Below are positions 4,581-4,677 of a stretch of 4,677 bases of DNA, in pieces. The stretch lies in IMG/VR virus record IMGVR_UViG_648276659_000011; one strand, written 5' to 3'. The position numbers and the translations under genes are program-made. The DNA comes from a virus (lineage: Monodnaviria > Loebvirae > Hofneiviricota > Faserviricetes > Tubulavirales > Inoviridae). The number at the start of each line of letters is the position of its first letter. Position 1 is the stretch's first letter. Under the pieces are notes generated by a model. That model was given only the letters and a program-made list of their open reading frames with translations, was not told the origin of the DNA and searched no databases.

Positions 4581-4607
4581 GGTTCGCACAATGACGTTAT
4601 GTGTAAA
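4581..4607 (+). other. Degenerate dif-like Xer site (inner copy): XerC-like arm, short central region, XerD-like arm
   Basis: GGTTCGCACAA (9/11 to E. coli dif XerC arm GGTGCGCATAA), TGACG, TTATGTGTAAA (8/11 to XerD arm TTATGTTAAAT). Inverted relative to the outer site. Confidence 0.5.
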
Positions 4608-4609
4608 AA

Positions 4610-4640
4610 GGCCGCTGCGGGAGACATTTTAGCAGCGACC
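4610..4640. terminator. GC-rich stem-loop between the two dif-like sites; possible bidirectional terminator and/or distal stem of a folded attP hairpin
   Basis: GGCCGCTGC (4610-4618) pairs with GCAGCGACC (4632-4640) with one mismatch, 13-nt loop. Flanked by AAAAA upstream and TTTT downstream. Confidence 0.45.
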
Positions 4641-4641
4641 T

Positions 4642-4674
4642 TTTCAACATAACGAGTCGTACATTATGCGCACC
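4642..4674 (-). other. dif-like Xer recombination site (outer copy) with an exact E. coli-type XerC arm; candidate att/junction
   Basis: Minus strand reads GGTGCGCATAA (11/11 to E. coli dif XerC arm), TGTACGACTCG (11-nt central region instead of 6), TTATGTTGAAA (9/11 to XerD arm). Only 3 nt of the window remain beyond it. Confidence 0.65.
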
Positions 4675-4677
4675 AAT

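Follow-up and report, generated by a model that had tools for sequence, protein, structure and literature searches.

The right-hand edge of the filamentous-phage sequence analysed here raises the question of whether an inovirus of enterobacteria carries an attachment site that works only when folded. The window (the whole stretch of DNA analysed, 4,677 nucleotides) ends in two inverted dif-like sites flanking a stem-loop, an arrangement that the first-pass annotation, made from the letters alone, had likened to the forked hairpin by which CTXΦ presents attP to XerC and XerD in single-stranded DNA. A sequence search placed the window, with 100% identity, on the chromosome of E. coli MS 196-1 (2553368-2558044), and thus in an enterobacterial host, as had been anticipated from the exact XerC arm. 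From the evidence set out below, positions 4581-4677 are very probably the attL junction of a filamentous prophage of the CUS-1/YpfΦ family integrated in the E. coli dif site, with a CTXΦ-type folded attP.

The features of the window are listed in Table 1. Domain searches identified Zot, DUF2523 and Phage_CRI domains in the element, and the phage genes are encoded on the window minus strand, which is therefore the phage plus strand, as previously proposed. Comparisons with CUS-1 in UTI89 and YpfΦ in Y. pestis NCTC5923 revealed the gene order of the CUS-1/YpfΦ group (pII, pV, coat genes, pIII/puvA, pVI, Zot, secretin), matching that of UTI89 and Y. pestis, together with the antisense regulator and variable ORFs that this group carries beside attL. 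Identity to these two phages is highest over Zot, pVI and pIII. By contrast with CUS-1 and YpfΦ, the regulator and the two cargo ORFs are unrelated: the HTH regulator has no relationship in DNA to those of either phage, and the cargo slot has no DNA similarity to them. The cargo ORFs matched no significant Pfam or PADLOC family. No integrase was annotated or detected, by annotation or domain scans, in the window or in its full-length relatives. A whole-window query of the INPHARED phage collection gave no match, so the element is known from these collections only as a prophage.

Table 1. Features of the window, with the basis of each assignment and the DNA identity of the segments compared with CUS-1 and YpfΦ.
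Feature	Position	Strand	Basis	Identity to CUS-1/YpfΦ
Segment compared	1-2793			99.1-99.7%
Phage body	83-3023	-	Annotation, domain search, DNA comparison	
Zot/pI	83-1108	-	Domain search	
DUF2523, pVI-like gene and position	1112-1399	-	Domain search	
pIII/puvA, truncated	1412 to about 2793	-	Annotation, DNA comparison	
pII replication protein, N-terminal fragment (first 81 residues)	2793-3023	-	Domain search	93%
HTH regulator in rstR position, annotated "transcriptional regulator"	3191-3643	+	HTH_3, weak match	
Segment compared	3643-3734			86-93%
Variable cargo slot adjoining the hairpin, antisense to the phage genes	3728-4571	+	ORF list, annotation	
Cargo ORF, 132 aa	3728-4126	+	ORF list	
Cargo ORF, 120 aa, membrane-like	4129-4491	+	ORF list	
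Hydrophobic mini-ORF, 22 codons	4503-4571	+	ORF list	
Segment compared	4577-4677			about 91%
Inner inverted site: GGTTCGCACAA (4581-4591, XerC-like, 9/11), TGACG (4592-4596, 5 nt), TTATGTGTAAA (4597-4607, XerD-like, 8/11)	4581-4607	+	Sequence comparison; pairs with 4642-4674	
Distal stem-loop: 10-bp G+C-rich stem (4609-4618/4632-4641), 13-nt variable loop, T/A runs on either side	4609-4641		Fold and repeat scan	
Outer site, putative XerD-binding arm TTATGTTGAAA, 9/11 to dif	4642-4652	-	Sequence comparison	
Outer site, central region TGTACGACTCG, 11 nt; TGT(A) is the XerC-proximal part of the dif spacer TGTATA	4653-4663	-	Sequence comparison	
Outer site, putative XerC-binding arm GGTGCGCATAA, 11/11 to E. 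coli dif	4664-4674	-	Sequence comparison	
ATT, final bases common to the host dif flank and the phage 3' end; host-only sequence from 4678, outside the window	4675-4677	-	Junction comparison (L001)	

The prophage has lost part of its genome. An internal deletion of 2,068 bp, joined at position 2793, removed the segment corresponding to 5335-7402 of the CUS-1 locus (L004), which is present in a full-length twin with 99.9% identity (L085). In MS 196-1, unlike CUS-1, two prophage copies are found, and both carry this deletion, leaving them without most of gene II and without genes V to VIII (replication, coat). The prophage is therefore defective, and its att site is a relic that would not be presented as single-stranded DNA without a helper. 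A Photorhabdus locus (L020) considered as a minimal 1.6-kb element was rejected as such: it contains a gene II fragment and is thus a decayed prophage.

The anatomy of the right-hand edge largely bore out the first reading. The outer site combines a XerC arm identical to that of E. coli dif with a central region of 11 nt, and the inner site is degenerate in both arms, with a 5-nt centre. Together they form a close-set inverted pair, the outer site on the minus strand and the inner on the plus strand, with 34 nt between them. On the plus strand that is packaged, the outer site runs from the XerC arm through the spacer to the XerD arm, because the phage genes lie on the window minus strand, and the TGTA of its spacer can pair with the host dif spacer, TGTATA. 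The window contains the pattern GGTGCGCATAA-N11-TTATGTT a single time, and all of 200 shuffled sequences lack it. The arms of the inner site match those of dif at 17 of 22 positions, and a site of this quality (no more than five mismatches, spacer of 5-8) was found in 5.5% of resampled 4.7-kb sequences. A distal stem had been proposed at 4610-4640; the stem-loop is present, and one base longer at each end. Immediately after the stem, the plus strand reads TTTT(C) and the minus strand TTTTT, and the structure probably acts additionally as a two-way transcription stop for the cargo genes; it was not called in a terminator scan, because its loop exceeds 8 nt. An Rfam search returned no family at gathering score.

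The chromosomal context was examined over a 9-kb flank on each side of the window (L001). Directly to the right lie hipA and hipB, and to the left two copies of the same prophage are arranged in tandem, as reported for YpfΦ (PMC4266046). The rest of a host dif (TGTATA plus TTATGTTAAAT) had been expected to the right of the window. It is absent there, the sequence beside hipA being the host DNA that borders the XerC side of dif; instead, a perfect 28-bp dif is found beside an IS1 at the distal end of the prophage array, 11.5 kb away (L001 2156-2183), which is the position given by a XerC-first integration model. One end of the prophage in dif is thus a hybrid site, in which a host XerC arm is followed by the phage spacer and the phage XerD arm, and the opposite end is a restored dif. 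UTI89 has the same layout, with a single prophage, CUS-1, and a distal dif (L004 481-508). Comparison of the host junction with the phage-phage junction (L001 13660-13690 versus L001 6880-6900) revealed that the 14 nt ATTGGTGCGCATAA and all sequence inward of them are common to both, with divergence beyond. Host-only DNA therefore begins at base 4678, immediately after these 14 nt, close to the junction predicted at or just past 4674, and the exchange point lies within the common 14 nt.

The exchange point could be narrowed further with relatives in which the XerC arms of host and phage differ. In Y. pestis, the arm is GGTGCACATAA at the host-phage junction and GGTGCGCATAA at the phage-phage junction, and in E. 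coli JNE25-005 (L005), which harbours a different inovirus with the same module, it is GGTGCGCATAA at the host junction and AGTGCGCATAA at the phage-phage junction. As the arms differ by junction type, the XerC arm at the host junction is host-derived, and all sequence from the spacer inward is phage-derived. The crossover thus maps to the XerC cleavage point, and such junctions would result from cleavage by XerC between arm and spacer followed by strand exchange with dif. In the window, where the phage's own arm is identical, the XerC arm at attL should likewise be that of the host, and cleavage and crossover would fall between 4663 and 4664.

Single-strand folding of positions 4575-4677 brought the arms of the two sites together. 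The minus strand was predicted to form one long hairpin (-27.2 kcal/mol, z = -7.0), equalled by none of 200 shuffled sequences, and the plus strand gave a weaker fold (-23.4 kcal/mol, z = -5.5). In the predicted hairpin, the XerC arms form nine Watson-Crick pairs and one G·T pair of a possible 11, and the XerD arms nine of 11 without gaps, or 10 Watson-Crick pairs and one G·T pair if a one-base bulge is allowed. The pairing of 4581-4607 with 4642-4674 put forward in the first-pass annotation was thus recovered; its unpaired central regions were recovered in part only, as TG/CA is predicted to pair beside the XerC arms and CG/CG beside the XerD arms. This partial pairing would leave a one-sided bulge of 5-7 nt in the 11-nt strand. 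Four other variants folded alike (z = -7.3 to -11.3). Relative to CUS-1 and YpfΦ, which have the same 11-nt spacer and the same arms and are about 91% identical over the 97-nt att region, the window has the TTTTACACATAA variant of the inner XerD-like arm rather than CTTTAGCATAA, resulting in one extra bulged base, as well as a different loop and one G·T pair in the stem.

We investigated the conservation of this structure with a 17-nt inner-site word, which itself limits the variation visible, in one genome per species and in a viral contig collection. About 17 loci in Enterobacterales, from at least 12 genera (among them Yersinia, Lelliottia, Enterobacter, Phytobacter, Photorhabdus, Kluyvera, Scandinavium, Citrobacter, Cedecea, Buttiauxella, Serratia and Dryocola), and 52 inovirus-sized contigs were recovered. 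An alignment was built from 34 distinct complete hairpins from Enterobacterales genomes and viral contigs, many of them host junctions with a host-derived XerC arm. On the specified hairpin, 94.9% of the cells were paired, versus 27-50% when the partner was slid by one to three columns. Changes on both sides of a pair were found at four pairs (15 cells), a level reached by none of 500 shuffles, and covariation is thin because the family averages 90% identity, with 26 of the 38 pairs never varying. Two of the four pairs lie just outside the XerC arms (e.g., CCAG...CTGG versus TTGG...CCAA), and pairing that extends beyond the protein-binding arms is expected of a hairpin, unlike two independent duplex sites. 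The arms and the stem were near-invariant, including the first ten bases of the XerD arm TTATGTTGAAA, which did not vary at all, and the loop and the spacer interior were variable. In all 34 homologues, the outer spacer was 10-11 nt long, began with TGT and ended with CG. Three recurrent G·T wobbles, each present in the majority of sequences or in all of them, occurred on the phage plus strand only, becoming A·C mismatches on the opposite strand, consistent with the weaker fold of the latter. The predicted fold, the location, the junctions and the conservation of the module together support the CTXΦ-type forked-hairpin reading.

By analogy with CTXΦ, integration may proceed as follows. On the circular phage plus strand (the minus strand of the window), the outer site would anneal with the complement of the inverted inner site, giving a hairpin of ~98 nt that would mimic dif, with duplex XerC and XerD arms on either side of a short paired spacer, from which 5-7 nt of the 11-nt strand bulge out, and with a distal stem-loop rich in G+C. 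The host recombinases would bind the folded hairpin, and XerC would cleave after GGTGCGCATAA and swap a strand with dif, the invariant TGT(A) pairing with the dif spacer and stabilising the exchange. As the XerD side has no homology, the resulting junction is proposed to be resolved by replication. In the product, one end would consist of the host XerC arm followed by the phage spacer, the phage XerD arm, the loop and the inner site, and a perfect dif would be restored at the opposite end. In this scheme, XerCD binding, catalysis by XerC only, the use of single-stranded DNA and resolution by replication are inferred from the CTXΦ precedent.

The likeness to CTXΦ covers several features. Both phages have an inverted pair of dif-like sites with unequal spacers (12/7 in CTXΦ, 11/5 here), and the long-spacer site of each starts with a TGT that the host dif spacer shares. 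Neither has a phage integrase, both integrate at dif with dif rebuilt distally, and both carry a repressor gene antisense to the phage genes beside the site. Outside the Xer arms, however, there is no detectable sequence relationship, and the arms in the window are fitted to the dif of enterobacteria. Only 34 nt separate the two sites in the window, against ~90 nt in CTXΦ. The attP1 and attP2 spacers of CTXΦ are 12 nt and 7 nt long, the long-spacer site beginning with TGT (Table II, PMC3089051), and attP(+) is described as a folded single-stranded attachment site (Val et al. 2005, as reviewed in PMC3089051 and PMC4246890). Dependence on XerCD and single-strand use are proven for CTXΦ and would hold here by analogy. 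VGJΦ-type and TLCΦ-type phages also use host XerCD and integrate at dif. The former have one duplex site and are excisable, whereas the element studied here has two inverted sites and an outer spacer of 10-11 nt in all homologues, and does not conform to a VGJΦ-type attP with a single duplex site and an ordinary spacer. TLCΦ-type phages lack a good XerD arm and encode an activator; the window element has a 9/11 XerD arm, and a Pfam scan detected no activator-like domain in its regulator or cargo ORFs.

The closest relatives are CUS-1Φ, from E. coli O18:K1:H7, and YpfΦ, from Yersinia pestis, which occupy the same dif locus, beside hipA in E. coli; DNA comparison identified the window element as one of their kin. 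Because their XerC/XerD binding sites are inverted, published reviews already class both with CTXΦ (PMC3089051 citing Val et al. 2005; PMC4266046; PMC4246890), and reviews from the Barre and Das groups describe them as CTXΦ relatives with attP features for direct single-strand integration. The wording of PMC4266046 is that the structure "may constitute" a substrate. The CTXΦ-type reading is thus well supported, yet it has already been published for CUS-1 and YpfΦ, and the present finding is a rediscovery in a variant of these phages, differing from them in its regulator, its cargo, its internal deletion and about 9% of its att sequence. Two published observations count against the CTXΦ model, which does not predict them: YpfΦ is almost exclusively extrachromosomal in laboratory E. 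coli, and superinfecting phage enters between the copies already resident instead of using the distal dif (PMC4266046).

The junction sequences are compatible with either single-stranded or double-stranded integration through the outer site, so that they would look the same (host XerC arm with phage spacer, and a rebuilt dif) had the outer site alone recombined with dif as replicative-form DNA, as in VGJΦ-type phages. The stem-loop and the inner site would then be a two-way terminator or insulator for the cargo, a role in keeping with the G+C-rich stem flanked by T runs on both strands, with the cargo ORFs that end just upstream and with the persistence of the stem-loop and inner site in insertion sequences without the outer XerC arm. 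Known functional XerCD duplex sites, however, have spacers of 6-8 bp (6 in dif, 8 in cer), and the 10-11 bp found in 34 of 34 homologues exceed this range; as the conserved inner arms would also be left unexplained, duplex integration is unlikely. The same reading is further weakened by the retention of dif-like arms in the inner site, by pairing that runs two bases past the XerC arm with changes on both sides, by the strand specificity of the G·T wobbles and by the lack of a call for the stem-loop in the terminator scan.

The phage plus-strand hairpin is better than its complement and occupies the non-coding DNA that separates the antisense cargo from the phage genes, at their 3' end, in a window with no assigned packaging signal. 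These traits would also suit a hairpin serving mainly as another plus-strand signal, for packaging or as a minus-strand origin like the Ff intergenic hairpins, with only the outer arms mattering for Xer. This is slightly more improbable again, as it leaves unaccounted for the resemblance of the inner arms to dif, the TGT that never varies and the constant 11/5 spacer asymmetry, with its 12/7 counterpart in CTXΦ; moreover, such a signal is compatible with a Xer role rather than exclusive of it, and packaging or minus-strand signalling may be an additional function of the hairpin. As for a chance resemblance of dif-like words around an ordinary terminator, to which the degeneracy of the inner site, taken alone, might lend some credit, its probability is negligible: the outer pattern was absent from all shuffled sequences, the module is conserved in dozens of dif-integrated inoviruses, and the genomic context, with the exact dif locus beside hipA and the rebuilt dif at the other end of the array, rules it out. 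The folded attP of CTXΦ type is accordingly the reading that we retain.

Part of the hairpin was also found outside phages. A BLAST search of 5,426 complete E. coli genomes with positions 4560-4677 matched 940 genomes (17%, about one in six), about 200 of which have the full site, the others matching 4577-4651 only, with about 87% identity; 484 of the matching places are plasmid-borne. The short copies consist of 75 nt (inner site, stem-loop and XerD-like arm). In place of the outer spacer and XerC arm they have a 49-nt stretch, which is the right inverted repeat of an IS1202-family element carrying the annotation ISNCY; 5 bp separate the left repeat of this element from a XerC arm, either that of dif or that of a dif-like site on a plasmid. 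The hairpin with this right repeat is present in 591 plasmids from Escherichia, Klebsiella, Salmonella and other genera. Three loci examined individually (L002, L003 and L036) contain IS1202-family elements targeting dif, with inverted repeats of about 50 bp, weak matches to rve and HTH domains and a target duplicated over 5 bp, exactly in L002 (AACAT/AACAT) and with a single mismatch in the other two. The short homologues in L002 and L003 had been considered as damaged prophage junctions or IS200 remnants; this was rejected, because the 49 nt are the IS1202 right repeat, with a matching left repeat and target duplication. These are DDE-transposase elements rather than phages, and the window itself contains no DDE transposase or terminal inverted repeats of IS1202 type. 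According to PMC10132070 and bioRxiv 10.1101/2022.12.17.520857, tISKpn21-like transporter IS insert on the XerC side of Xer sites, both dif and those of plasmids, a behaviour matched by the position of the left repeat and the 5-bp duplication of the short copies; the passages searched in these two papers mention neither the hairpin nor a relationship to phages.

In the IS1202-family elements, the 75-nt piece directly follows a variable passenger gene, as the phage hairpin follows the cargo. The passengers have sharp boundaries, with the transposase gene on one side and the hairpin on the other; they are mutually unrelated and include a SIR2-like/PDC-S25 protein, an AbiJ-like protein and proteins of no assigned family. 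Beside full phage-type hairpins, a Shedu SduA gene is found in Serratia, and an AbiJ-like gene precedes the hairpin in Kluyvera. In phages and insertion sequences alike, unrelated cargo genes, several of them (SIR2-like/PDC-S25, AbiJ-like, Shedu SduA) directed against phages, stop within a few bases of the inner XerC-like arm, and it is exactly at this arm that homology breaks between elements otherwise 99% identical. The right inverted repeat takes the place of the outer spacer and XerC arm, so a complete folded site cannot form in these elements; as the 75 nt are kept there nevertheless, part of the hairpin has another purpose or is tolerated for another reason. When the left border of the passenger slot was searched for another Xer-like site, only weak XerC-like words matching at 7-8 of 11 positions were obtained, with no XerD arm, and a pdif-module-like structure is therefore unsupported. 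It is conceivable, although we regard it as doubtful, that the inner dif-like site and the stem-loop form a portable boundary module of a gene-cassette slot, common to dif-integrating filamentous phages and IS1202-family elements.

For the biology of this phage family, the comparative data, which are wider than those of the reviews cited above, suggest from sequence conservation that a CTXΦ-like folded site is conserved among the inoviruses that integrate at dif in enterobacteria (CUS-1, YpfΦ and at least one other inovirus group with the module), leaving the assumptions of specialists unchanged. The 97-nt signature is useful for annotation, as it marks the host-side end of such prophages and separates them from look-alike relics. 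The presence of the module beside defence genes, inside insertion sequences that target Xer sites, may be a new observation, potentially weightier than the main finding, and merits a separate look. If the boundary-module reading were true, a Xer-like hairpin would mediate or mark the exchange of cassettes by phages with insertion sequences, on large conjugative plasmids as well as at the chromosome terminus, and might also help the insertion sequence to find Xer sites; the observation would be important if a real exchange mechanism lay behind it.

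The variable cargo slot of the prophage is bracketed by the att hairpin and by a conserved patch, 86-93% identical to CUS-1 and YpfΦ. In comparisons of the window with these two phages, the patch is flanked by unrelated regulators and unrelated cargo. The first cargo ORF has its start codon within the patch, which also contains a 14-pair hairpin of its own. Homology to CUS-1 stops at window 3734/3735 and restarts at 4580, one base ahead of the inner XerC-like arm. A mini-ORF lacking RefSeq annotation separates the last cargo ORF from the att hairpin; its product looks like a small hydrophobic peptide.

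Coordinates of features in the window and in related loci
Feature	Location	Strand	Remarks
Patch conserved with CUS-1 and YpfΦ	window 3643-3734
14-pair hairpin	window 3660-3690		inside the conserved patch
Mini-ORF, 22 codons, MSMETGVAIIILLVIVGKLIGL	window 4503-4571	+	good ribosome-binding site
Hairpin portion shared with IS1202-family elements	window 4577-4651		~75 nt
IS1202-family hairpin homologue	L003 5001-5133; L002 3998-4126; also L036, L026, L009, L018
2,068-bp deletion, joint	window 2793
2,068-bp deletion, tandem copies	L001 3632-5243 and 10412-12023
Further missing stretch, dif-proximal copy	L001 2100-2330 vs 6927-9010		~2.07 kb
Phage DNA beyond XerC arm	L001 6898-6921 and L014 (phage 3' end)		~24 nt
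Inovirus of E. coli JNE25-005	L005, about 3380-10100
Collapsed relic, Dryocola clanedunensis	L037, about 6165-6215		locus coordinates
1.6-kb relic, Photorhabdus tasmaniensis	L020 1115-2700		window-like orientation

Through an internal deletion of 2,068 bp, the prophage has lost gene V together with the small coat genes, and an N-terminal gene II segment is fused to the C-terminal portion of gene III. In L001, the window with its chromosomal flanks, the same deletion is found in both tandem copies, and it was therefore a non-replicating phage genome that was duplicated or integrated twice. The dif-proximal copy lacks another segment, covering a pair of small ORFs as well as the secretin gene. 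On the XerD side of dif, at a distance of about 45 bp, there is an IS1 element.

A different inovirus, in E. coli JNE25-005, has the att architecture of the window prophage. Its genes include those for a larger Zot-domain protein and for a product annotated "phage coat protein", together with a secretin gene split by ISEc31. This phage has TGTGTTACACG as its spacer; the phage's own XerC arm, AGTGCGCATAA, pairs perfectly with the inner arm of the same phage. It may be a member of the UPΦ/IKe-like group, the description of which mentions only a partial dif repeat (PMC7307601).

The phage DNA immediately beyond the phage's own XerC arm, AGATTCTGCCATCCTTACCATTGG, is similar to the host flank on the XerC side of dif (as compared with L039, UTI89, Kluyvera georgiana and D. 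clanedunensis). This host flank reads AGATTCCGCCTATCGTTACCTTGG in Y. pestis and GGATTCTGCC... in E. coli, Kluyvera and Dryocola. Xer exchange at the arm-spacer border would not carry such a stretch across.

Part of the hairpin, comprising the inner dif-like site, the stem-loop and the XerD-like arm, is also present within IS1202-family transporter insertion sequences, with a variable passenger gene on one side and the right inverted repeat on the other. These elements lie 5 bp off a XerC arm, belonging either to dif or to a Xer site on a plasmid; their passengers include SIR2-like/PDC-S25 and AbiJ-like proteins. Among 5,426 complete E. coli genomes, 940 contain matches, as do 591 plasmids.

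Relics were observed in other genera. In D. clanedunensis, the host XerC arm runs straight into CGTCA, followed by the inner arm (GGTGCGCATAA-CGTCA-TTGTGCGAATC), an arrangement that looks as if the hairpin interior had been deleted between the two GCATAA repeats. The P. tasmaniensis relic, which has a dif-like site (GGTTCGCCTAA-TGTATA-TTATGTTAAAT) at one end and a full hairpin junction at the other, holds a gene II fragment and homologues of both window cargo ORFs (76% DNA identity); the same cargo therefore moves across genera. A Shedu SduA gene (PADLOC E = 2e-108) in Serratia bockelmannii and an AbiJ-like gene in K. georgiana terminate directly ahead of the hairpin. In K. georgiana this hairpin forms a complete phage-type junction; in S. 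bockelmannii it lacks the outer XerC arm and spacer. The presence of these two genes beside the hairpin suggests that the adjacent slot is a hotspot for anti-phage genes.
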